Source: a virus. From it: DNA of 64,000 bases. The stretch lies in the IMG/VR virus record IMGVR_UViG_3300045988_164982. One strand, 5' to 3'. The translations under genes were made by a program, and so were the position numbers. This document shows, piece by piece, positions 1-61,961 of the stretch (its first letter is position 1; each line of letters begins with the position of its first letter). The notes under the pieces were generated by a model that was not told where the DNA came from, did no database searches, and saw nothing but the letters and a program-made list of their open reading frames with translations.

Positions 1-60
1 GACCCTGATAATCCAGACCCTGATAATCCAGACCCTGATAATCCAGACCCTGATAATCCA
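1..60. repeat. 15-bp perfect tandem repeat GACCCTGATAATCCA x4, in frame and encoding (DPDNP)n
   Basis: direct reading of the sequence; frame 1 is open from nt 1 to 528. Confidence 0.9.
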
Positions 61-528
61 GAATATTGGAAGATAAAATTTGGCCCTATACGCGCCACTT
101 ATGCAGACCAGTATTACACAAAGAATTTGCACCACACCGATAAAAGATTGGCTTCAACACCAGAATATATCATGTGGACTTTGGATAATAAATTGGAGCA
201 GGATATTCAGTTTATTCAGGAAGTACCTACCATTATACGCTCCAGCATTCCTGTTAGAGATATTCGGGGAGATTTTACCCCGCAGATGGTTATTGCCCAC
301 GATAAAGCAAAAGAGGGAAAACAGTACAAAGAACGCAGTGCTGTTCTTACTATTCAGCAACATATGACATTACTGCTGGCTTTAGTTGGTGCCAATATCT
401 ATTACCATCGGGGTAATCCTGTGATTGAGCCTTGGATGCTTTGGGAGATATGGAAGTGGCTTGGACAGATAAATATACCAGAAGCCGTTGATACGATATT
501 TGACATTATGCCGAACTGGGGTGAGTAA
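1..528 (+). CDS. 3' end of a tail gene running in from upstream of the window (probably tape measure protein), ending in pentapeptide repeats
   Basis: frame 1 open from the window edge to the TAA at 526-528; sits immediately upstream of distal-tail-like genes. Confidence 0.4.
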   Translation, partial: DPDNPDPDNPDPDNPDPDNPEYWKIKFGPIRATYADQYYTKNLHHTDKRLASTPEYIMWTLDNKLEQDIQFIQEVPTIIRSSIPVRDIRGDFTPQMVIAHDKAKEGKQYKERSAVLTIQQHMTLLLALVGANIYYHRGNPVIEPWMLWEIWKWLGQINIPEAVDTIFDIMPNWGE

Positions 529-2624: not shown

Positions 2625-2635
2625 GGCGGTGAATT

Positions 2636-5600: not shown

Positions 5601-5752
5601 CGGTACTGCGGTTTAGCGACTCTACGACATATACAACGGACTCTCCAGCAGACTCTTACACAGTGAAAACTTGGATAAAGACTGTGCAATTAGGAACAGC
5701 AGATTATTATACATGGAATGAAACAAACAGCATTTTCGAGGTGAAAAAGTAA
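2636..5752 (+). CDS. phage tail host-specificity / central fiber protein (GTA g15-like)
   Basis: 1038-aa ORF directly after the hub-like gene; N-terminal hydrophobic segments; no internal stops. Confidence 0.5.
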   Translation: MARRKNDSGLGAWVGWGLTTLALLFFNRRSSTRNSSFNQEPATLSITSTRIGTVIPVVMGQCLIKSPLTSYWGDFSSRAYTEDYGMWTDVDWTNIIISGLIPLIAILVTPSKHFVTTSSGAGTATDTANGNKMRMIVMAIISLLLALLTALFTNHGGRTTIQKGFKYYLGYQQILCWGSPNARLRRIYMNEKEVWSGDEPASNHLDGSPFTIHVDNENLFGGPDENGGFVGDIRVYFGGDNQGADHWMSKEMNADSIQADLRGLTSAYRPFITVVVPTAYVGKSATIPTMWYEIEIIPDSLAKANGKDYAKIGDDANPAEIIKEIVSNNDWGLAESADCLDIKALDSMGERIAKEQLGLSIQMTSKETAESIVENICSHINAIRYADSSTGLMVHRLIRDDQEDMLLVNTSNCSKITFVRQDWLNTISEISVSYTDRSARYETGTLTADDPANIEILNGVKTTKSYDFPYFTTAANALYAAKRVGTEQGYPLANISLECDRTMSTLRLGDRFVVKFAPYGIASMIFRATNVDLSDFVDGTVKIDAVEDVFSLAKNNFTYSGSTEWERDPVQPSEIQIWGVWEEPYEITRMTETFVKMYACQPSIANTIWHVWRKTATDSNFVRSNDTTAWTAVGKMVYNYPEDGLAEDLQGFTVREVNGITNMVEEMLIPTSADIDVARKANRIAIIGEEWIAYSGMVQQPNGNWKILGVIRGIYDTVPQKHSATEPVIFLQSGHYINVKRGGWVCSKGQTTDEYYSITTDSVDQQGQLNPALNIHFETKQRSSRPTVQGRIRMTAHMLSDQYYADKVAGDLSLTWAPRDKDSTFTVVTQNDVADSVSGTAFEKPNGLDYVVEVFAGGLSIRKDTVTNEAYYYSWADRCKDGGDIGAETTIQMYCIFGGLESWQRQERTFLWIVPTIVGFAYDETGAIGLIHDLENNGQIVLPAGQYNNPQYIDYDDSPVVLLGFPVVNPSTPGAMLAADGTYWLPNGTVLRFSDSTTYTTDSPADSYTVKTWIKTVQLGTADYYTWNETNSIFEVKK

Positions 5753-10306: not shown

Positions 10307-10310
10307 TAGA

Positions 10311-12308: not shown

Positions 12309-12342
12309 TGGGAGGGGTGCAGGGGAGGATTCCCCTCCCCGC
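12274..12342 (+). promoter_or_regulatory. GC-rich IMH-like VR 3' end (GGCGCCGCCTTG) plus downstream GC hairpin GGGGAGG-ATTCC-CCTCCCC
   Basis: the GC-rich VR end matches the TR except at A positions; a perfect 7-bp GC stem lies at 12322-12340, analogous to the Bordetella DGR IMH and hairpin. Confidence 0.5.
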
Positions 12343-12409
12343 TCGCTTTCCCAGGGAATAGTAACATTTTAGAAATTAAATATATGGGTATATACAGACG
12401 AGGCGGCTA

Positions 12410-12497
12410 CGGTGGTAACTCGAACTACGGCCTGTTCTATTGGAACTCGAATAACTCTCCGTCGAACTCGAACGTGAACTATGGCGCCGCCTTGTAA
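12410..12497 (+). repeat. DGR template repeat (TR)
   Basis: non-coding copy of the VR with 21 adenines, AAC/AAT (Asn) codons in the VR frame, ending in TAA. Confidence 0.85.
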
Positions 12498-12628
12498 CTT
12501 GAACACAATATAAATAATGTCGGTATATATCCACACTCCATACGGAGAGAAAATTAGGCATACAGAAAGCGGATTAGTAAGAGTAAAATCATAATATCCG
12601 TAGACCTTTGTTCAAAGGATTTTAACAT

Positions 12629-13714
12629 ATGAAAACTATAAATAATCTATTCAATGAAATAATAAGTGAATCTAATTTGAGGATGGCTCTACACAACGCA
12701 GCCAAGGGAAAAAGAGATAAACGCAGTGTGAAAAGTGCTCTTTTTAACGAAGATGAAGTTGTGACACAGCTTCATTATGAACTAAAAAACAATTTATGGA
12801 GGCCAAAGCGAATACACAACATAAAAATAATCAACGATGGTGTGCAGAAAAAGAAACGTGAAATAGTTTGCCCAGATTTTATTAAAGACCAGGTTGTTCA
12901 TCATGCCATAATGCAGGTATGTAAACCTTACTTTATCAATAGATTCTACAAACATTCTTATGCAAGTGTGCCCAAATACGGAGGGCTTGAAAATATGGTA
13001 AAATATATTAGGCACGCAATGAATGACAAGAAAAACACGAAATATTTCGTCAAACTAGATATAAAGCAATTTTTCAATTCCATAAAGCCATCAACAGTCT
13101 TTCATGTGCTTAGAAGAATTATCAGGGATAAGAAAACTTTAGCCCTTTTCGCACGTATTCTGCGTGGCAATGTTATTATCCATCCAGAACTAGGTGTTAT
13201 AAAGCGAGGGTGTCCGATAGGGCTATATACATCACAATGGTTTGCCAACATATTATTGACACCGCTTGACAATCTTATTAAGTCATTTGGAAAGAAAATA
13301 GCGCCGTATTATGTAAGGTATAATGACGATATACTCATATTTTCACCTAATAAGCGAAAACTAAAAAAGGTTGTAGATGGGGTTGTAAACCACCTTGAAC
13401 TAATAGGACTTTCTTTGAAACACAAAGCACAAATTCACATGACATCAAAGAATAAAATAACATATGTTGGTTCTTTGATAACATATTATAAGATTACAAT
13501 GAAGCCTAAAACATTCGTAAAGACAAGGCGATGTTTGAATCACATAAGGAAGAAAATGAACAATCATCAGAAAATAACTTCTTATGATGCAAAAAGAGCA
13601 TTTGCCTATATATCACGCTGTAGAATTTACGATATGCATGATTTTATAGCTGATTTGCAATTGCCTTTAGATAATTTCAAAAAGACTATCAGTTATGCAG
13701 ACAAAAGGAAGTGA
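12629..13714 (+). CDS. DGR reverse transcriptase
   Basis: 361 aa; RT motifs LDIKQFF (motif A), IGLYTSQ (DGR-diagnostic IGxxxSQ in place of QGxxxSP), YVRYNDDILIF (YxDD); size and position downstream of the TR. Confidence 0.85.
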   Translation: MKTINNLFNEIISESNLRMALHNAAKGKRDKRSVKSALFNEDEVVTQLHYELKNNLWRPKRIHNIKIINDGVQKKKREIVCPDFIKDQVVHHAIMQVCKPYFINRFYKHSYASVPKYGGLENMVKYIRHAMNDKKNTKYFVKLDIKQFFNSIKPSTVFHVLRRIIRDKKTLALFARILRGNVIIHPELGVIKRGCPIGLYTSQWFANILLTPLDNLIKSFGKKIAPYYVRYNDDILIFSPNKRKLKKVVDGVVNHLELIGLSLKHKAQIHMTSKNKITYVGSLITYYKITMKPKTFVKTRRCLNHIRKKMNNHQKITSYDAKRAFAYISRCRIYDMHDFIADLQLPLDNFKKTISYADKRK

Positions 13715-28439: not shown

Positions 28440-28735
28440 TAAAGTAACTAAAATAGAATATTCACATCGAAAGATTGCTGACCAACAGCATGACCAACAA
28501 AGATGTTTATTATAATATAAAAAAGTAAAATCGTATAAACACAAAATGTAGATGAATAAAGGCTTGGTAAACTTTAGTATACAAATCCACAATTACATCC
28601 GATAATTTATACGAATGGGAGAGATTATTCATAAACCCAGAGTTTACTAAGCCTGACAAGGTATATAAACATCTTTGACCAACATTTGACTAACAAAAAA
28701 CGCCCTGAGTGATTCAGAGCGTTTTTTTGTTAGCT
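28440..28735. other. candidate attP region with TGACCAACA direct repeats and a bidirectional terminator hairpin
   Basis: AT-rich ORF-free stretch abutting the 3' end of int; TGACCAACA at 28479, 28494 and 28674 (plus TGACTAACA); hairpin AACGCCCTGAgtgatTCAGAGCGTT flanked by an A-run and a T-run at 28706-28735. Confidence 0.35.
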
Positions 28736-29779
28736 TTGCGGTAAAAAATCATTTAACATTGCAGCAACTTCTTTGTCGTGCTGTTTATACACATGCCCAT
28801 ATGTATTCAGCGTAATGCTAGGGTTAGAATGTCCAAGTCTGCTAGCGATAACATTCACAGGGACACCCATTTTGATTAAGAACGATGCGTGAGAGTGCCT
28901 TAATCCATGAATGGTTATCACATGAACGCCAGCACGCTCACACAGCCTTTTTAAGCGGGTACGTATGGTTCTGACATCTAACTCTTGAAATAGGTATTCA
29001 GTAGGCTTAGACAAGTTCTCAACGTATTCCTCGATTATCTTCATACAAGAAGATGGCATTGTTATGGTACGAACGCTATAACTTGATTTAGTCGTACTAA
29101 TCTTATGTCCTATTGTATCATATTGTTTGTTAATAGTGATAGTATTTTTTTGAAAATTTAAATCGTTGATAGTAAGCCCCAGAAATTCTCCTATACGCAT
29201 ACCAGACCAATACAAAGTATAGAACACTACTTTGTCGTAATCATTAGCTATTTTGCTGGCAACCAGTTCCCATTCATCTTGCTCTAAAAAGTTGTTATTG
29301 TCTTTGTCTGCTGCAGGTAATAGTGGCTCTATACTGGTAAGCTCGCTTGAAAGGTTGTAATATTTTACACCAAAACCTATAAAGGCCTTAAAAGAAACGA
29401 GAATTAGTTTCATAGAGGCGGGGGACAGTGGAAGTTCCATAACATAATTCTGCCATTTTCGTACAGTGAACGGAGTAATGCTGCTGATAGGCAATTCGCC
29501 TATTTTTGGCAATATATACATATTAATGTTCTTGCGAACACTTCTGTAAGAATTTGCCTTGTAGTGTAATTTATAGTCAGCCAAGTATTCATCAGCCATT
29601 GCACTAAGAGTAATTGTAGGTTTGCTTTGAGATTGAGCACGAAAATTTCTTTCATATTCCAGGGCATCCTTTTTCCTTTCAAATCCTCGCTTTGTGGTAG
29701 ACCGCGAATGCCCGCACCAGTCGCGATAACGGAATTTGCAGTACCATGATTTTTGTTCTTTATCATAGTAGACAGACAT
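28730..29779 (-). CDS. int: tyrosine site-specific integrase
   Basis: C-terminal HGLRHSHASFLIKMGVPVNVIASRLGHSNPSITLNTYGHV catalytic region (R..H..R..Y). Confidence 0.85.
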   Translation of the reverse strand: MSVYYDKEQKSWYCKFRYRDWCGHSRSTTKRGFERKKDALEYERNFRAQSQSKPTITLSAMADEYLADYKLHYKANSYRSVRKNINMYILPKIGELPISSITPFTVRKWQNYVMELPLSPASMKLILVSFKAFIGFGVKYYNLSSELTSIEPLLPAADKDNNNFLEQDEWELVASKIANDYDKVVFYTLYWSGMRIGEFLGLTINDLNFQKNTITINKQYDTIGHKISTTKSSYSVRTITMPSSCMKIIEEYVENLSKPTEYLFQELDVRTIRTRLKRLCERAGVHVITIHGLRHSHASFLIKMGVPVNVIASRLGHSNPSITLNTYGHVYKQHDKEVAAMLNDFLPQS

Positions 29780-45689: not shown

Positions 45690-47145
45690 TGATACGCTTT
45701 CGCTGTCAACTACCTACCACCTATAGAGGTGGAGGCTTGTAAGTCAAAAATCACTTAGGTACTAACGATATTATCTCCCTAATTTTGCCTACATCATCGG
45801 ATGGTTGACAACACCCGTCTAGCCTAAAAGTATACTTCTAAGCTGTTAGTTTTGGTTTTTTCTCACCTGAAACATATCTCACACCTAATTGCTGAATATT
45901 CATAGCACCAACTCTATCATCATTACTGCAATACCCACATTTACATCTAAAAATGTGAGATTTGTGGTTACGACTCTTTTTATCAATACATCCACACTTA
46001 GGACATCTCTGAGACGTATATTGTGCAGGTACTTTTAATACAGCACTATGATTTAAATTAGCCTTATAGGTTAAGAATTGCTCTAACTGGTAAAAAGCCC
46101 ATGAACGCTTCTCACAACGACTTTCAGTAGAGCCTTTTAAATTATCCTCATCAAAGGTAATCCCTGTTAAATCTTCAAGTACAAAAAGTGTATTTTTACC
46201 ATACTTCTTTATGAGTGTCTTAGATAGACAGTGATTAACATCTGTCATCCAACGGTTCTCTCGTCCTGAAATACGTTTTAATACTCTTTTAGCCGATTTT
46301 GTACCTTTAGACTGTAACTCTGCTCTTACTTTAGCAAATCTATTACGTTTAGTCCTAGCCTTATTTCCTGAAAAGAATGTAGTCTTTCCTTGCTCATCAT
46401 AACACACTGCATGAAATCTAATGCCTCTGTCAATACCAACTACATGAGCAATCTGTTCTGTATTTACAGCCTCAATTAACTTAGTAGCTGAAATGTGTAA
46501 GTACCAACTACCATCATGTTCTACTAACTTAGCACTGCCAAGTTTCCAATCAGAAGAGAAATATTTATCAAAATTATCACTACATATAGGTGTAGCAAAT
46601 ATTCTGCCCTCTAAAGTATTAATAGATAAATTCCCGTTGGCTAACTTAGACCAATCACGATTACGAACAAGGTCGACTTGCGGATGTGCAAAATTTATAG
46701 GCTTCTCGAGCCATTCAAGATTCCTAGAAACATGATACCTCTTCTTAGTATTCTTATCTTGGAATCTATACGGATTTTGTTTCAACTGTGTTTTTACAGT
46801 CTTATATCTTGCAATTGTAGAACGAATTGCAGATTGTGCCATCATGGATTTTAATCCAAATTTTACACGAATCTCACTATATATCCCTTTTTGTAATTTT
46901 AGCTGACTTAACTGAAACCCGTGTGTAAAGATATATTCGGAAATATAATTACAGGCTTGTCTATATTGCTCCATAGTATTAGTAACTTTAGAAACATCTT
47001 CAATACGATGTAAGTCTAACTTTACTTTTATTGTAATACCTTGTGTTATACTAGACAATCATATCACCTCCTTTGTTTAATTTATTTAATATATCTAGCA
47101 ATTCCTCCCCCACTTCTATAAGTGGGGGGAGGAATTGCTAAAGTG
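45690..47145 (-). mobile_element. IS200/IS605-family element carrying only tnpB (IS1341-like), with subterminal hairpins
   Basis: TnpB ORF; left-end perfect hairpin AGCAATTCCTCCCCCACTT-ctata-AAGTGGGGGGAGGAATTGCT (47096-47140); right-end hairpin CCACCT-atag-AGGTGG (45716-45731). Confidence 0.65.
45838..47058 (-). CDS. tnpB: TnpB (OrfB) RNA-guided-endonuclease-family transposase accessory protein
   Basis: 406 aa; C-terminal zinc-ribbon CPKCGCIDKKSRNHKSHIFRCKCGYCSNDDRVGAMN; RuvC-like region. Confidence 0.75.
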   Translation of the reverse strand: MSSITQGITIKVKLDLHRIEDVSKVTNTMEQYRQACNYISEYIFTHGFQLSQLKLQKGIYSEIRVKFGLKSMMAQSAIRSTIARYKTVKTQLKQNPYRFQDKNTKKRYHVSRNLEWLEKPINFAHPQVDLVRNRDWSKLANGNLSINTLEGRIFATPICSDNFDKYFSSDWKLGSAKLVEHDGSWYLHISATKLIEAVNTEQIAHVVGIDRGIRFHAVCYDEQGKTTFFSGNKARTKRNRFAKVRAELQSKGTKSAKRVLKRISGRENRWMTDVNHCLSKTLIKKYGKNTLFVLEDLTGITFDEDNLKGSTESRCEKRSWAFYQLEQFLTYKANLNHSAVLKVPAQYTSQRCPKCGCIDKKSRNHKSHIFRCKCGYCSNDDRVGAMNIQQLGVRYVSGEKKPKLTA

Positions 47146-51131: not shown

Positions 51132-51149
51132 TAATTTCAGGTAAAAGAA

Positions 51150-51182
51150 AAGCCCCACCATTATGGCAGGGCTTTTTGATTT
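51150..51182. terminator. bidirectional terminator between convergent blocks
   Basis: GCCCCACCAT...ATGGCAGGGC imperfect stem flanked by an A-run and a T-run. Confidence 0.4.
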
Positions 51183-51220: not shown

Positions 51221-51451
51221 TCAAGCTGGTACCGCAGTAAAAGCTCCGTAACCATGTAGGAAGCGGTCTTCTTTGTCCTTGAATATTACCAGGTCATTGT
51301 CAATGCCAGCCGAGTAAATATTGTCGCTACAATCATCTACTAGCTTTTCCATAGCAGAATAACAAGCCTCGTTCTCATCGCTACTATCAATCAGGAATGG
51401 CAACGGCTTCACCAACTCGTCCAGATTATAGGTTGATAAATTATTAAACAT
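51221..51451 (-). CDS. hypothetical acidic protein (start uncertain)
   Basis: ORF; no clear RBS. Confidence 0.25.
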   Translation of the reverse strand: MFNNLSTYNLDELVKPLPFLIDSSDENEACYSAMEKLVDDCSDNIYSAGIDNDLVIFKDKEDRFLHGYGAFTAVPA

Positions 51452-51584
51452 AATGGGTGTAATGTGTGCACAATAGACTCTAAAATACATAAATAAGCAC
51501 CTCCAAGAACAAAACAGTGTGAAAATATGCAATAATGCTAGCAGGAATGTTGTTAAAGCAACACACCTGCCAACAATTATAGCA

Positions 51585-52112
51585 TTAGCAATTACGGTCG
51601 CTCCGCGGTGTTGTAATTGCTTTGATTTCACCAACACTGGCAGCGGTATCATCTAAAGCCTCAGCTAAAATGTGCATAGGTAGATTTAAATCTTTGTAGC
51701 CCCGATATAAAATGTCTAAATAATGCGGGCTGGGCAAACCAAGATGGCGGTCTTCGTGCATGATATAGGCCATACCGTCAGTCGGTGTATTTTGCCATTT
51801 TTCAGGGTATAAAGGCTTGAAATTTTCGATGGGCAAAGTTTTCTTGTAATAGAATGTAGGGTGTCCCTCATAGATGTCCAGACGGTTCTCATCAGCCTTA
51901 GAAATTGCCCAAACCAACACTGGCACCTTGCACAAAACATTCTTTTCAATGGTGGCATAATTGCCAGACTTGCTACCCTTGAACATGAGCTGATAGCCTG
52001 AAATATCAGCGATTCCAATGGGCATGGCATCAGGGCAACGATGGCTCATTTGTTGTAAATCCAAATTAGAACCATAGGCAAGATAAATGGAAAAATTCTT
52101 TGTTTTAGACAT
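51585..52112 (-). CDS. gamma-glutamyl cyclotransferase-like (GGCT/AIG2) protein
   Basis: YLAYGSNLDLQQMSHRCP N-terminal motif and DIYEG; RBS AGGAGG. Confidence 0.6.
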   Translation of the reverse strand: MSKTKNFSIYLAYGSNLDLQQMSHRCPDAMPIGIADISGYQLMFKGSKSGNYATIEKNVLCKVPVLVWAISKADENRLDIYEGHPTFYYKKTLPIENFKPLYPEKWQNTPTDGMAYIMHEDRHLGLPSPHYLDILYRGYKDLNLPMHILAEALDDTAASVGEIKAITTPRSDRNC

Positions 52113-52148
52113 GATTTTAGCCTCCTAAAAATTGCATTATGTGAAAAG

Positions 52149-52355
52149 TTAATCGTTATCGGATAGTAATACATCTATAAGCCCTAAAAACCACACAATC
52201 CCATCAAGAAATGTGTTCAGGATATTCATAAGAAGTACGGGCAGATAGAACAATATGATGAAGAATGTAATGGGAAATAGAACAAGTCCCATAATACCGC
52301 CAAAAGAGGCATCTATAATCTTGAACGTTTCCTTAGAGTCGCTATCAAATCCCAA
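52149..52355 (-). CDS. small membrane protein
   Basis: two hydrophobic segments. Confidence 0.35.
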   Translation of the reverse strand: MGFDSDSKETFKIIDASFGGIMGLVLFPITFFIILFYLPVLLMNILNTFLDGIVWFLGLIDVLLSDND

Positions 52356-52775
52356 TTACATCACCTCCAAGCGTGCCTGATTCTTTAACATGAGGCCAGT
52401 CAGAAGCCTGTTCAGCTCGCAAACATCATCAACATCAATAGAGGTCGTGTTTTCGCCATCTCTACCAGCAAGGAAGATGTCACCAAACAAAAGCCCAGCA
52501 TAGTCAAGCTCTCCAGTAGCCAATTTTAAAGGGTTCAAGCAGATATTTGGCTGTGGATTAGGTATAAGCAAAGCCTCATCATCAACAAAAATGTCATATT
52601 TTGCCAGTGGTGTTTTCAGAAGAATATCAGGCAGATAGCGGGTAGCTGGTACAAGGTTAAACAAACGACCGCCTACAAGATTTTGCATAGCCTTAATGTC
52701 GTGCTCTATTCGGATGACTTCAGGCGTAAAACTATCAGCCTTTAAATGTAATACAGTAAGTTTTCCTTTTTTCAT
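52356..52775 (-). CDS. hypothetical protein (cluster member)
   Basis: ORF, co-oriented with the neighbouring genes. Confidence 0.4.
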   Translation of the reverse strand: MKKGKLTVLHLKADSFTPEVIRIEHDIKAMQNLVGGRLFNLVPATRYLPDILLKTPLAKYDIFVDDEALLIPNPQPNICLNPLKLATGELDYAGLLFGDIFLAGRDGENTTSIDVDDVCELNRLLTGLMLKNQARLEVM

Positions 52776-52870
52776 AATGGTACACTCCTTTTACAGTAAA
52801 GAATATTGATGTATGGTACATCTCATAGGGCATTAATACTGTGTACTAGTGCCCTATAGGACAAACCAGA

Positions 52871-53836
52871 CTAACATACAGCAGATTCAGCCACTAAGGC
52901 TGAGGGGGAGGAGGTACGCCAAGCCACATTGCCAGACAGATTTTCTAATAGGAATTTACGACATGTTTCAAATTCTTTCCCCTTTAGCTTCAGTTGGTTA
53001 ATAAAACAGTGCATGAGATATGCCTGATTGTCGGTTTGTGCTGGAGTAGGGTCGGCACGCTTTTTTGACTTTGCTAATTCCATGATAGCAAGTGCAAACT
53101 GAATTGCGGTCTTGACTTTACCCGCATGGAGGGTGGAATTGAAAAGCCTAAACTCCACTGTGCCGTGCATTCCAAGCGAATGAAAATTCAATGCACGATA
53201 ACGGCTGTCATGATAATGCACGCTCTGCTGATGGCGTACCTCATCAGGCAAGCACGAATAAAAACTGGCCAAAAATTCATCTAGGGTAAAGTCACCAGTC
53301 AGTGCATTTATTGCCCTAGAATATCTCCCGCTCATTGGCTGACAATATGTGATGTTGCGGTGCTCATCATCAACCTGAAAGGCATTGAAAAACATTGCTT
53401 CATTCTTGTGCCAGATGTTGGCTAAGACTCGCAGGTGCTTTGGCGTAAAGTCATCAGCACCTATGTGTACATGTAAGCCACAAGACCGGTTTACTTTAGC
53501 TCCGTATCTTTTCAGATTACGAACGACCTCCTGTAGAATCTCGATGTCTTGACTGCCAGACAGTATCGGCGTGATTAATTCGCATTGAGATGTGGCAACA
53601 TCATCACCCTCATGTGTTGGAGAACATGTCCTTATGCTAGAGTCACGGGCAATATACCAATTACGGCCTTTGCTGTCCTGATACACATATTTGTCATAGA
53701 CACCACCACAAAAGTCCGTTTTAGCGAAAATGTTTTTGGAAATTGTAGTTGCAACAATGGCAATAGCCGCTGGCCTTGATACTCCGCAAAATTCCAGCTC
53801 TACACCAAAAGTGCGTGCCTCCATGTTTTCATTCAT
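52871..53836 (-). CDS. amidoligase / GCS2-like carboxylate-amine ligase
   Basis: N-terminal FGVELEF and SCGLHVHIG (GxHxHxG) motifs of the glutamine-synthetase-like amidoligase/YbdK superfamily. Confidence 0.55.
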   Translation of the reverse strand: MNENMEARTFGVELEFCGVSRPAAIAIVATTISKNIFAKTDFCGGVYDKYVYQDSKGRNWYIARDSSIRTCSPTHEGDDVATSQCELITPILSGSQDIEILQEVVRNLKRYGAKVNRSCGLHVHIGADDFTPKHLRVLANIWHKNEAMFFNAFQVDDEHRNITYCQPMSGRYSRAINALTGDFTLDEFLASFYSCLPDEVRHQQSVHYHDSRYRALNFHSLGMHGTVEFRLFNSTLHAGKVKTAIQFALAIMELAKSKKRADPTPAQTDNQAYLMHCFINQLKLKGKEFETCRKFLLENLSGNVAWRTSSPSALVAESAVC

Positions 53837-53940
53837 AGTACATACACTCCTTAGAAATACATTGATAATATTCAGTCCTAAAGACTTTACACTGCCCACC
53901 AGGCGAAAGCTGGCAAGCAGGTTAAAACCTTTAGAGTATG
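53837..53940 (-). promoter_or_regulatory. conserved structured 5' UTR element, copy 1 (upstream of the amidoligase)
   Basis: about 100 nt nearly identical to 55256-55350, including the RBS AAGGAGTGTATGTACTATG; internal hairpin with compensatory changes. Confidence 0.5.
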
Positions 53941-54010
53941 GATATATTAAGCTCATCAGCAGCCAAGCGGATGGCCTTGTCGAAAAATTCCTGAGAAATT
54001 GACTTTTCTA

Positions 54011-54184
54011 CAGTGCTGGCCATTTTGCCGTTGAAAAGTTCCCAGCAATCAGGGCCAATCTTGAATATGTTTTTTTATCAGTAGCGTCCAGCTGTTGCCC
54101 TAACCAAAAAATGTTGCCGTCAATGAGAAGTTTTGCAAGAATACCACCAAACTCGTCGTTATATTCACAATCCAGAACTGTCAT
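54011..54184 (-). CDS. small hypothetical protein (57 aa)
   Basis: AGGAGG RBS 6 nt upstream of the ATG. Confidence 0.35.
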
Positions 54185-54199
54185 AATAAAACCTCCTTT

Positions 54200-54706
54200 T
54201 TATCGCGGTAATCTAGAAGTGACACGTAAAATTTTATCTTTATATATTTTTGAAATTTCGATATGAATATCATTGACTAGGGTGTTGAGGTCTGATATTT
54301 TTTCATTCAGCAGGGCAATGGTGTCCTCGACGTGTTCAGCTTGTGCTGTTAGGTCTGATATTACCTTTTTGATATATTCGGCTCGTTTGTCTATCAATAC
54401 ATTGAGCTTTTCGGCATTGATACGCTTGCCGTCCAGAAAATCATCTAATTTACATATAACTAGATTGCGTGCATAATCATCACAAGCTCCGTCCTCGCGT
54501 TCTATTTTAATGCTTTTTTTATCATAGCTAGCGTGATAAACATAACAGCCAACTGACTCTAAGGCATTGTCAAAACGCTTGTTATAACACTTGCCATCAA
54601 ACTGCTGGGCAATAGCTTTTACGCCATCGACCAGGGCAAAGGTCTTTTCATACTGAGAGATACGTGCCTGTAATAAAATTTCTTCTTTTGTCATGACTTT
54701 AGCCAT
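54200..54706 (-). CDS. hypothetical protein
   Basis: 168-aa ORF. Confidence 0.4.
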   Translation of the reverse strand: MAKVMTKEEILLQARISQYEKTFALVDGVKAIAQQFDGKCYNKRFDNALESVGCYVYHASYDKKSIKIEREDGACDDYARNLVICKLDDFLDGKRINAEKLNVLIDKRAEYIKKVISDLTAQAEHVEDTIALLNEKISDLNTLVNDIHIEISKIYKDKILRVTSRLPR

Positions 54707-54781
54707 AATAAAAACCTCCTAAAAAGCTAACCACAAAAAATGCACTTGTGGTCATAAAGAATATATGGTATGATAATAGAG

Positions 54782-55255
54782 TCAAATTATACCTTTCCAA
54801 ATGAGCTTATATTCAGGTAAGGAACGGATAGAAGTTGACGACTTTAGCTCCGTATCTATGCCGATGATGATGTGGTCTAGTACGGGAATATTCAGGATTT
54901 TTCCTGCCTCTACCAATCGTCTAGTGGTATTAATATCATCCTCTGATGGAGTAGACACGCCACTGGGGTGGTTATGAGCTACGATGATGCTGGCCGCATT
55001 GTGCAGGATAGCAGGTGCAAACACCGACCTCGGCTCAACAACGGAGGCTGAGGAGCTACCCACGGAAATATCCTGAATAGCGATAACACCGCCCTTGATG
55101 TTCAAGCACATAACAGTGCAATGCTCGTATGGTTCATCTTTAAACCAGCTGGCCAGAATGGCGGTGGCATCATCAGCACCTGTGATGGTTTTAGTTTCGT
55201 AAAGATGACTGCCCTCACGGACAAGCTGAAGCTTGTAACTTGCAATTCTTTTCAT
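54782..55255 (-). CDS. RadC-like JAB/MPN-domain protein
   Basis: AHNHPSGVSTPSEDD ... PVLDHIIIG JAB signature. Confidence 0.7.
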   Translation of the reverse strand: MKRIASYKLQLVREGSHLYETKTITGADDATAILASWFKDEPYEHCTVMCLNIKGGVIAIQDISVGSSSASVVEPRSVFAPAILHNAASIIVAHNHPSGVSTPSEDDINTTRRLVEAGKILNIPVLDHIIIGIDTELKSSTSIRSLPEYKLIWKGII

Positions 55256-55352
55256 AGTAAATACACTCCTTGTATGTAAAAGATTGATATTCAGCCTAAA
55301 GGCTTTACACTGCCCACCAGATACAAATCTAATAGGCAGGTTAAAACTTTTA
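55256..55352 (-). promoter_or_regulatory. conserved structured 5' UTR element, copy 2 (upstream of RadC-like)
   Basis: see copy 1. Confidence 0.5.
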
Positions 55353-55360
55353 GGGTGGTA

Positions 55361-55894
55361 TCAGTACAACTCAATGTAACCACCAGCAGCAGGGATATAA
55401 TGCCCCTCAATTTCAAGGTCGCGACCATAGGCCTCATAATCAAAGTACCGAAGTAAAAGGTCTATATCTTTGGAACGGTCACAACCGGGGCAGTTAAAAT
55501 CTGCAATTACTTGACGGGCTACATCTCCCATGTCGTCGCAATTGTCATAAAAGGTGTAGTTGTCGTCTTCTAGGATGGTCAAACCCTCCTCAATATTGCA
55601 GGAATACTCATAAAGAATAGCCTCAATAATCTCGTCGTCCTCGTCAATGTCTTCCAGCCGTTCTGCGACATCATTCACATGGTCATAAGAGGCGTACTCG
55701 CCAAAATTAACTGGGCTTTCCCAATCAGGGAAAAAGTACTCCTCGTGTTCGTCATCGCATCCAATGTCAGACAAAATCTCATTGAACTCATCAGAGGAAA
55801 TAGGGAAGTCAATCCAACGGCCTTTATCAATGCCCTCGTTCCATAATCCCAGACAAGCGATATAACCACGGATAGCAATAGTATTGTTTTTCAT
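55361..55894 (-). CDS. ardA: antirestriction protein ArdA-like
   Basis: MKNNTIAIRGYIACLGLWNEGIDKGRWIDFPISSDEFNEIL N-terminus; highly acidic remainder (DNA mimic). Confidence 0.55.
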   Translation of the reverse strand: MKNNTIAIRGYIACLGLWNEGIDKGRWIDFPISSDEFNEILSDIGCDDEHEEYFFPDWESPVNFGEYASYDHVNDVAERLEDIDEDDEIIEAILYEYSCNIEEGLTILEDDNYTFYDNCDDMGDVARQVIADFNCPGCDRSKDIDLLLRYFDYEAYGRDLEIEGHYIPAAGGYIELY

Positions 55895-55931
55895 AATAAT
55901 ACACTCCTTTTTGAGATACATAATCAGCATA

Positions 55932-56138
55932 TCAGCAGTTTTTCCACTTATTAGAAAACCACTCCCTATAAGCTACAATGTCGTCACCTTTATAGATGTA
56001 CAAGGGTGTAAGCCGACCAGCACACAAGCGACTTGCAAAGCGTTTGGCACTAGTCAAGGTCTTGCAATCAATATAGGAAGTGTTGGACGAGTAATTGTCT
56101 AATTCTTCTATGATACGGAATACCATAATAAAAACCAC
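55932..56138 (-). CDS. small hypothetical protein
   Basis: ORF. Confidence 0.3.
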   Translation of the reverse strand: MVFIMVFRIIEELDNYSSNTSYIDCKTLTSAKRFASRLCAGRLTPLYIYKGDDIVAYREWFSNKWKNC

Positions 56139-56177
56139 CTTTCCAGAATCAGCCTAAAACGGCTGATTTTTTGCGTT

Positions 56178-56441
56178 TTAGTTTTTTGCGATGAAAAGCA
56201 ACATGGAAATATTGACTGTTTTGTATTGGGAGTAAAACCAGTCGTTAGGCTTGATATGGACGGTATAATTGTCATCTACATAGCTGAAAAGATGGTTAGA
56301 TAAGTATTCAGCAAGGTCACAAACAGCCTGTGTCCTGTTGCAATTCATAGTAGTAACAAGCTCGTCAAGCTGTTCAGCATTAGCCTGTTTTAAGACTTTC
56401 GCAACCGCCAGCTCATACATTGTCTCGGTATCAAATTCCAT
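56178..56441 (-). CDS. acidic hypothetical protein
   Basis: RBS TTAGGAGTG. Confidence 0.35.
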   Translation of the reverse strand: MEFDTETMYELAVAKVLKQANAEQLDELVTTMNCNRTQAVCDLAEYLSNHLFSYVDDNYTVHIKPNDWFYSQYKTVNISMLLFIAKN

Positions 56442-56728
56442 AATATCCACTCCTAAAAGACAAAGGCAGGTCAAAACACCGCCTTGAGACAAAAATTTTC
56501 TAAAACTGTCCACCAGTGGTGGAAAATAGGCCAATTTTCAGATGTTGCCTTGCCAGGAACGACTGACAAAGCAATCAGCAGGGAAAATCACCCTAAAAAT
56601 GCTATCTAGCTATAACAAAAAGTGCATAGCTGGGCAGCTAAAACCGGTAAAAGATGAATACCGAACACTCAATATTCATAAAGGATAACAAAAATCCCGC
56701 CTTTAGACTTTTCGCCTTGAAAAATATA

Positions 56729-56750
56729 TAACAAAATTGTTATATTAATC
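56729..56750. promoter_or_regulatory. perfect palindrome ATATAACAA-AA-TTGTTATAT inside a CCCGCCT...AGGCGGG long-range stem
   Basis: 9-bp perfect inverted repeat within a 435-bp ORF-free stretch. Confidence 0.45.
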
Positions 56751-56904
56751 CGTTAGGCGGGTAAAGAAGTCCACCCACAACCAAATTACCAGCAGGTAAA
56801 AGGCTAGATAGTATAATTTTTTCATTCTAAAACCACCTTTCAAATGTTTATGTGCAAAGTTTACAAAATTTCATAGCTAACCATTCCAGATTTTGTGAAA
56901 GGTT

Positions 56905-56976
56905 AACAATCATGGTAAAAACCACTTATGATACCTATTACATTTTTGTAGGTAATAGGCATTTAAGAAGTTTTTA
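56905..56976 (-). promoter_or_regulatory. conserved intergenic RNA element, copy A (AAAACCrCTTATGATACC-hairpin-GCATTTAAGArGTTTT)
   Basis: hairpin CCTATTAC...GTAATAGG here versus CACCGCC...GGCGGTG in copy B. Confidence 0.45.
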
Positions 56977-57240
56977 ATCATGGGGCATGGTAGGCAGATG
57001 ACTGATGACTGGGGTAAAATACCCCTTGTTATAGTAGGCATCTACTTCTGCCATGCTATTGAACTCTATAGTCCAATCTTTTACAACTTGGCAAGAAAAT
57101 CCGACATCACTCAGTAAACACCTATAGTCAACTACATACTTGTTTTTAATATGATACAAGTTTGCATGTATGCTGAGGGTCTTGCCGTTTTTCGTTTTTA
57201 CAACGTTATGAGTAGCTATACAATCCTCTAGTTTACGCAT
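56974..57240 (-). CDS. hypothetical protein
   Basis: ORF. Confidence 0.4.
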   Translation of the reverse strand: MRKLEDCIATHNVVKTKNGKTLSIHANLYHIKNKYVVDYRCLLSDVGFSCQVVKDWTIEFNSMAEVDAYYNKGYFTPVISHLPTMPHD

Positions 57241-57254
57241 TTCAAAAACCGCCT

Positions 57255-57348
57255 TTCCAGGATTTACAAATTTTCATTCACGGAATAAAACCGCTTATGA
57301 TACCCACCGCCCAGCAAGGCGGTGAGCATTTAAGAGGTTTTATTTATC
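57255..57348 (-). promoter_or_regulatory. conserved intergenic RNA element, copy B
   Basis: see copy A. Confidence 0.45.
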
Positions 57349-57349
57349 A

Positions 57350-57853
57350 TCAATTCCAATAGATTGCCCAAGCTCTTTCCCTTGCCAATTCCTCAAGCAG
57401 GTCGTGCTCTTTGTTGGCTACTAGGGCATTGATAATTTTTACATCTAACTCGGACGGTACGTTATTGATATAGCATATATACCAGCCCTTACCGCAACAA
57501 ATATCATAAAGGTGATTTAGGAGGGCGTGCTCACCATTGCCCCACATATCGTATATGGTTTGGTCAAAGTTATCGCCGTACATATCCATGAGGTCGTCAG
57601 CACACTCGATGTGATCTCTCCATAAGATATAGTAATTAGAGTTACTGCTGATTATGCTTTTTTCAGCAGACAAGGTCAGCACACCAGCAAGCTGGTCGGC
57701 TGGATAGTAGTTAATAGCGTTTGACCATGTATGACAAATATGTACATCACACTCCCGCTCGATTACCATCTCAACGGCAACTTGGCTGGCTTTTACGGCC
57801 TCAACCAGCTTTGCCTCAAAATCCCAGTATTCGCTATATGTATACTTCTCCAT
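57350..57853 (-). CDS. acidic hypothetical protein
   Basis: 167-aa ORF. Confidence 0.45.
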   Translation of the reverse strand: MEKYTYSEYWDFEAKLVEAVKASQVAVEMVIERECDVHICHTWSNAINYYPADQLAGVLTLSAEKSIISSNSNYYILWRDHIECADDLMDMYGDNFDQTIYDMWGNGEHALLNHLYDICCGKGWYICYINNVPSELDVKIINALVANKEHDLLEELARERAWAIYWN

Positions 57854-58582
57854 AATGAAACACTCCTTTGTATTGCTTATTATTATTCTGACTAATAGCC
57901 ATTAGTCTGCCCTTTACCTATGCGGGTAATGAGCAGGTAAAGGCTACAAGGTCGGCAGGGAATACACCGCTCCGCCATGACATTATGGCAGTGTACTTTG
58001 CTGATAGTATGCCACATATCACACCGCCAGCTGTAGCAAGCTAGCTATGGCATACCGTTTCTGTCAGCGTGTCCGCTACATCATCATAGCGGGTGGGCGT
58101 ACTACACCTGTAGCACGACTTTGAGCTGTATGCGGTTTTCAAGGTACAACCGTTCCTTGCAGGTGGCTTACACCTGTGGGTAGACTACTCCCTGTCCTGC
58201 CTCCTATTTCAGGACGACTTTAATACATCTATTTGTTCGCTTTTGTTTGGCGGTTGCGACTCCGCCTGTACGGTACACGCCCCGCACGGTTGGCGGTCTA
58301 GGGGGTAGGCTTTCAACTTTGTTCCTGTTCCCCTTGACAATTATATTATAACTCTACACCTATATAATGTCAATACTTTTTATATATTTTTTGGCAGCCT
58401 GTGTGTATTTTTTATGTGGCGTTTTGTATTTTACCAGAGGTCAAGCGGATGTTTGCTCGGTACTGCCCTGGGAGCTACGCTAGGGAATTGCATGGTCTAG
58501 CTCTAAAATTTTTCCCAAATTTGAAATCCATTTGTGCAAGGTTAATCAACTGCGTTTTGTATAAAAATCTACAAAAAATCAT

Positions 58583-58651: not shown

Positions 58652-59242
58652 ATGGCGGTAGTAAAGGAAACAAGCATACAAATTAGGATGAGCGAAGATG
58701 AAAAAGCCATATTAAAGGCATTAGCTGAACAAAAGGGGCTTACATTATCAGACTTTGTACGCAGCGTATGTAAGCAGACAGTTATTAATAGCATGAGTGG
58801 CAGTTGCAACCTACAGGATAGGGAAGAAAGCGGCCAAATCACAAATAAGAATGATGTGAACCTAGGTGAGAAAAATCTAACACTTTTAGGAGGGGACGAT
58901 TGGGTAGCATATTCTTTTAATACCACGAAGAATACGAGTGAGATTCTGAACGCTGTTGCTAAAGCTAACAACACAACAGCCAATAAAATGATAAGAACAC
59001 TGCTATTAGCATGGCTAAGGGGAAAGACGAACAATGAGAATAGTGGAGTAGGAAGTATTTCTATATCCCCTAGAAAAAGAGGAGAAAAAAACTCGGTCAC
59101 TATCGGTCTTACCTTGACTAAGAATGACAGAGAAGCAATTTTAGGCTATTTAGCACAGTCAGGAGATAAACTTACTGGACTGCTAGATACCCTGATAGAC
59201 ACCTATGTGAAACCACAGCACAATGAACTGAAAGGGGAGTAG
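58652..59242 (+). CDS. DNA-binding protein with two RHH/CopG-like modules
   Basis: IRMSEDEKAILKALAEQKGLTLSDFVR and a second LTKNDREAILGYLAQSGDKLTGLL module. Confidence 0.45.
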   Translation: MAVVKETSIQIRMSEDEKAILKALAEQKGLTLSDFVRSVCKQTVINSMSGSCNLQDREESGQITNKNDVNLGEKNLTLLGGDDWVAYSFNTTKNTSEILNAVAKANNTTANKMIRTLLLAWLRGKTNNENSGVGSISISPRKRGEKNSVTIGLTLTKNDREAILGYLAQSGDKLTGLLDTLIDTYVKPQHNELKGE

Positions 59243-59247
59243 CAACC

Positions 59248-60837
59248 ATGATTAAGAAAGCAATCACCCTAGCAGTGGTATTAGTTATGCTGATGGCAAG
59301 CCAATGTTATGCAAAGAAAACAGCTCTAACGAATTTTGAATTAGATGAACTAGCACGACACATAGAAATAAACCTAAGCAGCATGGGTATGAGAGCACAT
59401 TTCATTCAGGACAATCCGAACGAAATGACTTTAACCCTAGAAGCTAGTAAGTATAAGTTCGTCACAGTCAAAAATAGTAATGGTACATTGCAAAACCTTA
59501 TCTGGTATGATATTGGTGGCTCTGCTGCTGGTAAAGATATTCTCTCTATGCTAAATGAGAGTATTTTCGCAACTATCGGTTTCCCAAAAGAAGATAGGAT
59601 AGAAAGCAACCCTGTTAATAATCGCCGTATAGGAGTAACGACATGGAATATACGCTCAAAACGATTGAAGCAGGAACTGCTTTACCAGGTAAAATATGAC
59701 AGCAAAAATAATCGAACGCTGTTTTCGCTTGGGAATGAACCTATAGATTCTGCATTGAACAGCATACAGCTAGCGGAAAATACTAACAACTTGATAGGTT
59801 TTGGAATTGACGAATATATCAAACATTTACAAATAAATCTTAATGGTAGAGGTATTACAAGTGAAATTAGTAAAAATAGTCAAAATGATATTGATGTTAC
59901 CGTAAAAAATCAAAAAAGTGGATTTTCTACTTATAGAATGATTGCCAAAACAAAAAACAATGGCTCAATAGGAGGTGTCGTTTGGTATTTAAAAACTGGC
60001 AATCCCACAGTTTATGAAGATATGGATTTTATCAGAAGCATATGCGATACTTTAGAAATAGAGTCTAATAGCGTCCACACATTTGCTTTTGGCTCTCATT
60101 TACAGCGTATAGGCGATGGAGTATTTGTAGGTAGTTTCTTAGATAAACAAAAGGGGTATTCAATAAGATATGGAAATCGTTATAATGGTGACATTATCAT
60201 TAGAGGAATAGTCTGCGAACCTATAAATTTAAATGATTTATGGTATGATATTGATGGCTTGGAAGAATCTACAGAAAGCTACGATGAAAAAATATTTAAG
60301 CAGGAAATTGAAGAACTATCAGTGCTAAGTCGGCATGGAGCACAAGCAATCTATGAACAATTGCCTACTATATATCACGACACTCCAGATTATAAACTGA
60401 CAGAGCTGCATACAAGGGACAACAAGACCTACATTTGTACTGCATACTATAAAGATTCATCGTGCGATATTTACTTCACGCAGAATGATAAAGGAAAGCT
60501 TGATACCGCAGCTATAATGTTTGATAGTGATGACAAGCGGGATGCTGCCATAGCAAGCTATGGTAAAATCACTATGGCTATCGGAATGTCAACAGCGGAT
60601 GCATTAAATTTACATGCTAATGCAATACATAATGCTGAACAACGACTTTATGTACAAAAACTAGCTGGAAATACTATAATGCATGGGTTAAGCGATATGT
60701 ATGATAGTAGTAGAAAGCATTTCTCTTTAATGTTTGCATATGATGAAATAGCTAAGAAGTTTAGTCTTTTGCTTGGGGTTATTGCCCCATCACCTAGTGA
60801 AATAGCGGATTATCGCAATGAATTAGGTATGAATTAA
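59248..60837 (+). CDS. secreted/lipoprotein-like hypothetical protein
   Basis: signal peptide MIKKAITLAVVLVMLMASQCYA. Confidence 0.5.
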   Translation: MIKKAITLAVVLVMLMASQCYAKKTALTNFELDELARHIEINLSSMGMRAHFIQDNPNEMTLTLEASKYKFVTVKNSNGTLQNLIWYDIGGSAAGKDILSMLNESIFATIGFPKEDRIESNPVNNRRIGVTTWNIRSKRLKQELLYQVKYDSKNNRTLFSLGNEPIDSALNSIQLAENTNNLIGFGIDEYIKHLQINLNGRGITSEISKNSQNDIDVTVKNQKSGFSTYRMIAKTKNNGSIGGVVWYLKTGNPTVYEDMDFIRSICDTLEIESNSVHTFAFGSHLQRIGDGVFVGSFLDKQKGYSIRYGNRYNGDIIIRGIVCEPINLNDLWYDIDGLEESTESYDEKIFKQEIEELSVLSRHGAQAIYEQLPTIYHDTPDYKLTELHTRDNKTYICTAYYKDSSCDIYFTQNDKGKLDTAAIMFDSDDKRDAAIASYGKITMAIGMSTADALNLHANAIHNAEQRLYVQKLAGNTIMHGLSDMYDSSRKHFSLMFAYDEIAKKFSLLLGVIAPSPSEIADYRNELGMN

Positions 60838-60942
60838 ATCGCAACCCATAAAAATGTGATAAACCCAGCCAAATAACCCATAAAAATGTGATTGACATAT
60901 GCCAAACAATGCATGATAATGTGATTAAAGGAGGGGATAAAA

Positions 60943-61602
60943 ATGAGAGATGCTTATGATTTTGCCAAGTATTTTATAAAGAACGGCTATGATTCCAATC
61001 CAAACACATACGATGGAAACATGAAACTTCAAAAAATGTTGACATTCGCAAATGCTATAAGCCTTGCAGAATACGGCAGCCCCCTGTTCAATGATAAAAT
61101 ATTAGCTTTTACTAATGGCTGTGTTGTAGAAAAGGTCAGACTGAGATATAGGAATGATTATAAGGGTTTAAAACGAGATAGCGATGTATTTCAGCCAGAT
61201 TTTACAGAGCAGGAATACGATGTACTGAATTTGACTGTAGGAATATTCGGCAAGGAAAGTGCCGTGACATTATCCAATGTCAATCACGAGTTCAGTTTTT
61301 GGAATGAACCATATCATAGAGGCATGGTCAATGATAGCTATCATGACAAAGAAAAATCAGTTGTTAATATGGAGGATTATCCCAAAGATATATCCGTGAT
61401 AAAAGGTATGATTGATATATACAGACAAAATCATAAAGATAGTAATAAGAGTGAGCTAATAAACGGCATTACTTTTTACTATGATGGTTTTGAGCTGACC
61501 GACAGCATTGTCCATGAGCTTGCAGAGTTTGCACTGTCTGGGGAGGCAGAGGATAGTTCTTATACGGTCTGCCTTGATGATGGAGAGCTGGTGATTTACT
61601 GA
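60943..61602 (+). CDS. Panacea (DUF4065/SocA-like) domain protein, putative antitoxin
   Basis: AKYFIKNG ... MKLQKMLTFANAISLAEYGSPLFNDKILAFTNGCVV pattern. Confidence 0.55.
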   Translation: MRDAYDFAKYFIKNGYDSNPNTYDGNMKLQKMLTFANAISLAEYGSPLFNDKILAFTNGCVVEKVRLRYRNDYKGLKRDSDVFQPDFTEQEYDVLNLTVGIFGKESAVTLSNVNHEFSFWNEPYHRGMVNDSYHDKEKSVVNMEDYPKDISVIKGMIDIYRQNHKDSNKSELINGITFYYDGFELTDSIVHELAEFALSGEAEDSSYTVCLDDGELVIY

Positions 61603-61961
61603 TGGAATTGAAAGCAGGTCACATCGTCAAAGGCAAACTTCCTTTTCGAGATGGCAAAATACCATTGTATAGCAGACCTTATCTGATTGTGAAAATAGAT
61701 TGCGATACAGTGGATTTGCTAAATATATCATCTACAGACGGCAAGGAATGGAAACTGGCCATGAAATCAAATATGGCTATAGTAAATTACGATCCACCAC
61801 TAAACAAGCCATCGTTTGTTAAACTTGATTCGCGCATAACAGTTCCATTGGAAAAGGTATGTAGTCTAAAGTTATGGGGTTCGCAGCCGTTATGTGAAAG
61901 TGAATTAGTGAAAATAATCAATGCCCTAGAGGTATTTGAAGTAGATGAAACAGAAAAATAA
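61602..61961 (+). CDS. putative cognate toxin (MazF/PemK-like fold suspected)
   Basis: TGATGG start/stop coupling; KAGHIVKGKLPF...SRPYLIVK resembles the MazF N-terminal pattern. Confidence 0.3.
   Translation: MELKAGHIVKGKLPFRDGKIPLYSRPYLIVKIDCDTVDLLNISSTDGKEWKLAMKSNMAIVNYDPPLNKPSFVKLDSRITVPLEKVCSLKLWGSQPLCESELVKIINALEVFEVDETEK

Follow-up and report, generated by a model that had tools for sequence, protein, structure and literature searches.

Introduction

The early transcript of phage T7, which bears RNase III sites, also carries an anti-restriction gene. Between T7 genes 1.0 and 1.1 stands the hairpin R1.1, the model substrate among these sites and an intercistronic structure of 60 nt with an asymmetric internal loop (PMC6121014). 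RNase III of Bacillus cleaves targets from phage SP82, and the title of a 1983 study cited in the same source places these sites in early mRNA (PMC4838370). In T4-type phages, short, repeated and conserved regulatory sequences with a stem-loop (promoter-early stem-loops, PeSLs) are found between small variable genes, and the junctions of indels and gene replacements fall within the repeats (PMC2839356, PMC4122927). Frpo hairpins of conjugative plasmids contain -35 and -10 boxes on the transferred strand (PMC11541004), and EGeRS1 sequences are ~325 nt or longer (PMC8708921).

Here we describe a family of hairpins in one operon of a tailed, temperate, uncultured human-gut phage. The window, by which we mean the whole 64-kb stretch of DNA that was analysed, had been the subject of a preliminary description that reported a pair of such hairpins and suggested that they act as an intercistronic processing or stability element, an attenuator or a small RNA.

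Results

The phage and its minus-strand operon

Tail proteins are encoded on the plus strand at 1-12308 and include a Phage-tail_3 protein and another, of 1517 aa, in which CBM_5_12 occurs as eight repeats. Cultured phages give only distant matches to the tail protein (~25% identity), and the close relatives are viral contigs from IMG/VR and contigs from human-gut metagenomes. Some of these relatives are embedded in contigs of 180-390 kb, which suggests a prophage state. Searches for DNA similarity with the element region and with the ArdA-to-amidoligase region returned no match in phage and plasmid collections, and the amidoligase, used as a protein query against IMG/VR, turned up no relatives. 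Genes elsewhere in the window include:

12629-13714, plus strand: reverse transcriptase
28730-29779: phage-type integrase
45838-47058, minus strand: TnpB (IS605 OrfB / Cas12f-like)

A 665-aa gene (10311-12308) lies in the gap of ~2.3 kb between the 1517-aa CBM_5_12 protein and the reverse transcriptase, and the plus-strand region 5753-13714 may be a diversity-generating retroelement targeting a receptor-binding protein. In the relative L162 a TnpB gene (368 aa, 73-1179) is located elsewhere than in the window, close to the anti-restriction operon. No tRNA genes were found in the 64-kb window.

The hairpins are associated with a block of minus-strand genes (51221-57853) that encodes, in order, a 167-aa protein, an 88-aa protein, a 26-aa hydrophobic peptide, two small proteins, ArdA, RadC, two proteins without an assigned function, an amidoligase, a DUF3846 protein and a GGACT-family protein. 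The features that delimit the block, and its first two genes, are:

58345..58373, minus strand: putative operon promoter, sigma-70-type TTGACA-17-TATAAT, perfect at 12/12 positions as a consensus match only
57350..57853, minus strand: 167-aa gene, between hairpins U and A, without a Pfam match
56974..57240, minus strand: 88-aa gene, flanked by hairpins A and B, with homologues at 69-93% identity
51148..51176, minus strand: intrinsic terminator of canonical form, closing the gene block

Since a consensus promoter (58373..58345) precedes the block and a terminator (51176..51148) follows it, the block looks like one transcription unit of ~7.2 kb. We infer solely from the gene content that this transcript is an early one. 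Among relatives the 167-aa protein is 59-95% identical, falling to 44% in a truncated copy, with hardly any change in the hairpins on either side of it, and its gene may be under an arms race or be exchanged often.

Several neighbouring sequences are also structured. The leader of 389 nt between the consensus promoter and hairpin U (57950-58338, minus strand) is G+C-richer than its surroundings and folds strongly (-140 kcal/mol, z -3.7); it has no match in Rfam and could be a regulatory RNA. The gene for the 26-aa hydrophobic peptide (MKKLYYLAFYLLVIWLWVDFFTRLTD; 56745-56825, minus strand) is kept in every relative examined, and 3' of it a conserved, strongly structured non-coding stretch of ~300 nt (56440-56750, minus strand; z -4.35) opens with an A+T-rich hairpin and a U-run. 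Together, the peptide and the non-coding stretch could represent a small toxin-like or membrane peptide with a regulatory RNA. A further long imperfect hairpin (~25 bp, -27 kcal/mol) is present between the amidoligase and DUF3846 genes (52810-52871, minus strand) and has no sequence similarity to the hairpin family described below.

Transcribed away from the operon is a divergent plus-strand block (58652-61961), which encodes a NikA-like/RHH protein, a 529-aa protein without an assigned function and a SocA_Panacea-type protein, the last called by synteny with Pfam calls in relatives. Relatives (L162-L167) also carry ParB_N-methyltransferase and Bro-N/ANT/pRha proteins. The gene set of the divergent block recalls the leading regions of plasmids, yet the element is a tailed phage.

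Hairpins A and B flank the 88-aa gene

The two hairpins of the reported pair, here A and B, are each followed by a leader that carries the ribosome-binding site of the next gene:

57287..57341, minus strand: hairpin A, 55 nt
57241..57286, minus strand: A-type leader, containing the GAAAAUUUGUAAAUC motif and, for the 88-aa gene, the ribosome-binding site GGAAAGGCGG
56918..56974, minus strand: hairpin B, 57 nt
56826..56917, minus strand: B-type leader, which is longer, with the same GAAAUUUUGUAAAC motif and a ribosome-binding site, before the 26-aa peptide gene

The 5' arm AAAACYNCTTAAATGC occurs exactly twice in the 64 kb (57341..57326 and 56974..56959), as does the 3' arm GTATCATAAGYGGTTTT (57303..57287 and 56934..56918); the four sites are minus-strand sequences, and 0.5-0.6 occurrences are expected by chance even with two to three mismatches allowed. 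The number and places of the arms are as first reported, from a reading of the plus strand, and both elements do lie directly after gene stops: A begins 8 nt past the TGA of gene 57350-57853, and B overlaps the TAA of gene 56974-57240.

On folding, A and B each form one long hairpin. The sense strand of A reads AAAACC-U-CUUA-A-AUGCUCACCGCCU-UGCU-GGGCGGUGGGUAU-CA-UAAG-C-GGUUUU, with a lower stem of AAAACC/GGUUUU, a 1x1 mismatch, a CUUA/UAAG stem, a 1x2 internal loop (A / CA), an upper stem of 13 bp and a UGCU loop. That of B reads AAAACU-U-CUUA-A-AUGCCUAUUAC-CUACAAAAAU-GUAAUAGGUAU-CA-UAAG-U-GGUUUU; its lower and middle parts are as in A, paired transitions set its upper stem apart from that of A, and its loop has 10 nt. 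The predicted energy of A is -35.2 kcal/mol on the sense strand (z -6.9) versus -27.8 on the antisense strand, and that of B is -20.4 (z -4.3) versus -16.2 kcal/mol.

Some resemblances of hairpin A were set aside. A frame of 21 codons on the plus strand over A, found by eye, is not kept in B, and the likeness of the upper stem of A to the tail of 16S rRNA fails for B and the other paralogues. A CRISPR-repeat mimic, a K-turn and a tetraloop receptor were also considered, and none holds for B or the other paralogues.

Compensatory changes place the structure on the mRNA-sense strand

Relatives were gathered by pattern scans and from contigs encoding homologues of the two flanking proteins. For the 19 distinct versions of A and B, the structure was written by hand onto a MAFFT alignment. 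Standard pairs fill 99.5% of the 395 pair cells, compared with 40-57% when the partner is slid by one to three columns. Between the upper stems of A and B, both partners differ in four pairs (C-G to U-A in three, G-C to A-U in the fourth), and a fifth pair differs on one side (U-G to C-G). The apical stems, UCACCGCC/GGCGGUGG in A and CUAUUACC/GUAAUAGG in B, had been taken to be of entirely different sequence; instead they differ by transitions only, and the upper stems of the two hairpins are homologous, having drifted via compensatory change.

Variation inside the A set and inside the B set consists nearly always of exchanges between G-U and G-C or A-U. The G-U wobbles, which occupy 36 cells, would be A-C mismatches on the opposite strand. 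The covariance model R1 scores the sense strand at 97.9 bits for A and 86.2 bits for B, as against 32.9 and 27 bits for the antisense strand. From the pairing, the wobbles and the sense-biased model scores together we conclude that the hairpin structure is real and under selection, and that it acts on the mRNA-sense strand. With the strand settled and the compensatory change genuine, the earlier suggestion of a conserved, structured RNA-level element in intercistronic spacers stands.

The hairpins form a family with five copies in one operon

Model R1 also gave weak matches to three further spacers of the same operon. These hairpins, and a remnant near ArdA, are:

57894..57948, minus strand: hairpin U, with a consensus fold from 10 variants (R2, 56.4 bits)
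55297..55351, minus strand: hairpin F1, 41 nt ahead of the RadC start codon (R2, 65.1 bits)
53879..53932, minus strand: hairpin F2, 42 nt ahead of the likely amidoligase start, ATG 53836 (R2, 52.5 bits)
55900..55942, minus strand: remnant of a sixth hairpin before ArdA, a match to the 5' arm with two mismatches, seen by comparison with L142, L162 and L167

The family consists of imperfect hairpins of 53-60 nt, with five copies here and six in relatives. A lower stem of ~6 bp is followed by a mismatch, a U/A-rich stem of 3-6 bp (..UUA / UAA..), an internal loop and the upper stem. The mismatch, 1x1 in A, B, U and F1, is replaced by a pair in F2; the internal loop measures 1x2 or 2x2; and the upper stem, of 11-13 bp, opens with YUGC and closes with GCAG or GUAU in all copies. 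By our own count from the folds, each of the five has a total stem of 22-26 bp. The U and F versions, when folded separately as a consensus, give the same layout.

Versions of A, B, U and F were then combined in a MAFFT alignment that was not fitted to any structure. Its 11-bp upper stem is 99.1% paired (28-58% in slid controls), and two-sided changes are found in 7 of the 11 pairs (0-2 in slid controls). Over the 64 kb, model R2, made from this alignment, picks out exactly five copies. Each is a minus-strand sequence of this operon, and the scores are 52-69 bits (A, 68.8; B, 63.2); the next best match in the window scores 19.5 bits, and the best in 0.82 Mb of unrelated viral DNA scores 21.7 bits. 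A covariance-model search had been proposed as a check on the pair, and R2 provides it: because many homologues exist, the prospect that A and B might have no further homologs falls away. Both members of the pair are real, and the count was too low, the five-copy family taking in a "first pair" mentioned in the same description, which is evidently F1 and F2.

Hairpin U is in the 5' UTR, 40 nt ahead of the start of the 167-aa gene, and has no upstream gene. The distance from the end of the hairpin to the next start codon is 40-42 nt for U, F1 and F2, 46 nt for A and 92 nt for B. Given this spacing and the position of U, the hairpin leads the downstream gene as much as it trails the upstream gene, and the initial description, which treated it as belonging to the 3' end of the upstream gene, probably gives only part of the picture.

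The ArdA-side copy is complete, and of the same layout, in L162 (8148-8201), L142 (1879-1931) and L167 (9558-9611). In the window, ~70 nt of it are gone between short direct repeats (GCTRAT / GTTGAT).

No Rfam family matched the whole window at its gathering score, and a search of the region 56100-58450 at an E-value cutoff of 5 gave nothing on A or B. We conclude that the element is a new structured RNA family, well supported and, in its functional kind, familiar, with a putative mechanism.

Pattern scans for further members of the family were dominated by chance. In IMG/VR, a scan with the 5' arm only gave at least 119 matches, nearly all due to chance, with the full element only in L001 and L004; the 3' arm only gave chance matches inside coding sequence, save for the same two contigs, and an F-type pattern again returned only these. 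A two-arm scan of metagenomes gave three true matches out of 18 (L134, L137 and L142), and none of 15 matches in species-representative genomes was a clear relative. Beyond the window, R2 searches covered the sequence already collected.

One candidate outside the phage group, at 5808-5856 (plus strand) of an Eubacteriales MAG (L160, JAZOOW010000136.1), is probably a chance match. Here CTTAAATGC and GGTATCATAAG enclose a third, different stem, of 8 bp (CGTTCGCC/GGCGAATG), and this adjoining stem is unexpected. The site follows a membrane-protein gene in a non-phage, G+C-rich setting and is without the outer stem; R1 gives it 20.5 bits, and R2 does not report it (E above 1).

Hairpin A is conserved beyond the needs of a stable fold

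Over 60 columns and 19 haplotypes, A shows 98-99% pairwise identity, compared with 60-80% in the last 300 nt of the upstream gene. It is near-perfectly kept throughout, loop included, and stays whole where the upstream protein is 59-95% identical as well as where it is the truncated copy at 44%. The A-type leader is near-invariant in L134, L137, L142, L165 and L174 despite divergent flanking genes, and in L134 the 88-aa homologue is far more divergent than the A-type leader that precedes it.

This constraint on A exceeds what a generic hairpin would need, and a sequence-specific partner is for that reason kept as a rival reading. The hairpins would in that case bind a phage or host protein or RNA, such as a translational repressor, an antiterminator or a defence-related factor, that co-regulates all the cistrons. 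Besides the invariance of A, loop included, the surroundings of the internal loop are common to the copies (UUA-N-YUGC ... GCAG/GUAU-NN-UAA), and in L179-L182 an identical C-to-U change in the internal loop is found in both A and B. This shared change could have arisen by co-evolution with a partner or, however, by gene conversion. The upper stems and loops vary freely among the paralogues, and the window yielded no candidate for an RNA-binding protein. We consider such a partner quite unlikely overall.

Stable folds, here of -20 to -35 kcal/mol, might instead serve as passive barriers or insulators that are not cut, blocking exonucleases and shielding each ribosome-binding site from the upstream gene. 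The fixed distance of 40-42 nt between U, F1 and F2 and the next start would suit this role, as would the loss of copies while the operon persists. However, stability alone would suffice for a barrier, so that both the mismatch and internal-loop layout conserved in all copies and the near-invariant sequence of A are left unexplained, and we regard the proposal as rather improbable.

Termination is not the common function of the family

A and B have U-runs directly after the hairpin (UUUUAUU and UUUUU) and A-runs before it. They could be leaky intrinsic terminators or attenuators that set the ratio of upstream to downstream expression, possibly with antitermination read-through, and an antitermination RNA might in principle be encoded by the 5' UTR, which is long and structured. 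A d'Aubenton-Carafa-type score, with the terminator 51176..51148 as the control, gives +6.7 for A, -13 to -34 for B and -53 to -66 for U, F1 and F2, compared with +25.8 for this true operon-end terminator. A simple terminator scan flags neither A nor B, and their U-runs pair with the upstream A-runs inside the stem. Terminators would also leave unexplained the 98-99% sequence conservation and a copy in the 5' UTR.

Given the place of U in the 5' UTR and the missing U-runs of three copies (U, F1 and F2), termination cannot be the common function of the family, whereas A itself may terminate or pause some transcripts. The attenuator first suggested is therefore weakened: the score is marginal for A alone and negative for B, and three paralogues have no U-run. 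We judge this reading unlikely.

No sigma-70-type promoter was found on the minus strand in or next to the hairpins, where a phage-specific type may differ from the consensus; the one sigma-70-type match in a leader (56843..56816) spans the start codon of the 26-aa peptide. The proposal that A and B are independent small RNAs was not borne out, the minus strand having no promoter-like site before either element.

Junctions of gene gain and loss lie within the repeated hairpin-leader modules

The 88-aa gene is absent from L001, L004, L162, L163 and L167. The order of modules around it takes four forms:

Arrangement 1: A, A-type leader, 88-aa gene, B, B-type leader, peptide gene (window, L134, L137, L169-L182)
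Arrangement 2: A joined straight to the B-type leader, without the 88-aa gene (L001, L004, L167)
Arrangement 3: A and A-type leader joined straight to the peptide gene (L162, L163)
Arrangement 4: a divergent, longer 88-aa gene (96 aa in L165), then the 5' arm of B only, fused to the next ribosome-binding site (L142, L165)

The rearrangement junctions are all in shared hairpin-leader sequence, at differing points. Such variable junctions fit ordinary homologous or illegitimate recombination between the repeats and do not fit a site-specific system, and the homology of the repeated hairpin-plus-leader modules would explain why some relatives have the 88-aa gene between A and B and others do not.

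The same evidence bears on whether the palindromes act as DNA, whether as single-strand DNA promoters (Frpo/ssi), as attC-like recombination sites or as spreading elements. A gene of variable presence is bracketed by hairpins, TnpB is encoded in the window, and the ArdA, ParB-methylase and NikA-like genes recall plasmid leading regions, the home of Frpo hairpins (PMC11541004). The window is, however, from a tailed phage; the sense strand folds better, whereas Frpo must fold in the template strand; stems of 22-26 bp are too short to hold -35 and -10 boxes; and on the plus strand there is no -35/-10 match over A and a weak one only at B. An Frpo-type promoter is excluded by strand, stem length, missing boxes and phage setting. 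The arms are without the GTTRRRY/RYYYAAC boxes of an integron attC site (by eye), and the junctions are not site-specific, varying from case to case among relatives. A spreading mobile palindrome is unlikely given that the five copies are confined to one operon, one orientation and one phage lineage. Taken together, action at the DNA level seems extremely improbable.

Discussion

We tentatively favour the reading that the hairpins serve, between cistrons, as signals for mRNA processing or stability, of the RNase III-substrate type, with the repeats serving also as a substrate for recombination. Of the roles first put forward, processing or stability is the one that structure, strand and spacer location fit best, although as a matter of inference. 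All five copies are in the leader or the spacers between the consensus promoter and the end terminator, and stems of 22-26 bp, which make some two helical turns and are broken by an internal loop as in the T7 and SP82 sites, favour a double-strand-specific nuclease. In outline, the hairpins would be cis-acting mRNA signals recognised as double-stranded RNA and most likely cut by host RNase III, the RNase complement of the host being assumed. Cutting would split the long transcript into separate messages protected by hairpins, or would insulate the cistrons from their neighbours. As a by-product, the repeated hairpin-plus-leader modules would provide homology for genes to be lost, gained or swapped.

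Several observations tell against processing by RNase III. At 1x2 or 2x2, the internal loop falls well short of the 4x5 loop of the T7 sites, and the conservation of the whole of A, loop included, is greater than a generic double-stranded RNA substrate needs and hints at a sequence-specific partner. Copies are dispensable, in that the ArdA copy is deleted here and B is cut down in L142 and L165. Finally, A and B end in U-runs unlike the other copies, and A is marginal as a terminator.

A bolder idea is that the modules make up a plug-and-play anti-defence system, in which a sequence-specific factor reads the shared internal-loop motif and processes or activates the messages together, with the genes being swappable. 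A more far-reaching form of the idea would cast the hairpin RNAs themselves as decoys, aimed at a host defence that senses RNA. We think the plug-and-play idea very unlikely.

If the processing reading is true, the locus would be a natural example of a phage that organises a battery of counter-defence genes on one transcript, and the same conserved spacers would allow that battery to gain and lose genes. With clear covariation, a defined model, five copies here and dozens of variants in relatives, and with no Rfam entry, the family could join RNA family collections and would then flag similar operons. A hairpin-leader module of this kind, whose function is putative, could also be used to insulate genes in engineered operons of Gram-positive gut bacteria.

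Among described systems, the Frpo/ssi and EGeRS sequences of plasmids are, as here, repeated structured non-coding sequences before anti-defence or establishment genes (PMC11541004, PMC8708921). In contrast to these, the present elements are of 55 nt, act on the sense strand and belong to a tailed phage. Intrinsic terminators, including those of phage 'moron' units, recall A and B, each of which has an A-run on one side and a U-run on the other and stands where a gene ends; one of the two genes is an add-on. The stems of the family are, however, long and interrupted, its paralogues have no U-runs, and its sequence conservation is far higher than a terminator needs.

Closer in their genetics are the PeSLs of T4-type phages, where conserved stem-loop repeats likewise flank variable genes and the junctions, here in four arrangements, lie inside the repeats. 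PeSLs are composites of a terminator and a promoter, whereas most copies here are not terminator-like, and the phage group and host are different.

The T7 and SP82 sites share no sequence similarity with the present family and differ in the 4x5 internal loop of T7 (1x2 or 2x2 here), and the family is encoded by a temperate phage of a gut bacterium, where cleavage is putative. Nevertheless, the sites R0.3-R1.3 of T7 and those of SP82 are, like the hairpins reported here, imperfect hairpins of ~60 nt with about two turns and an internal loop, and occur as several related copies in the leader and spacers of one polycistronic transcript (PMC6121014, PMC4838370).
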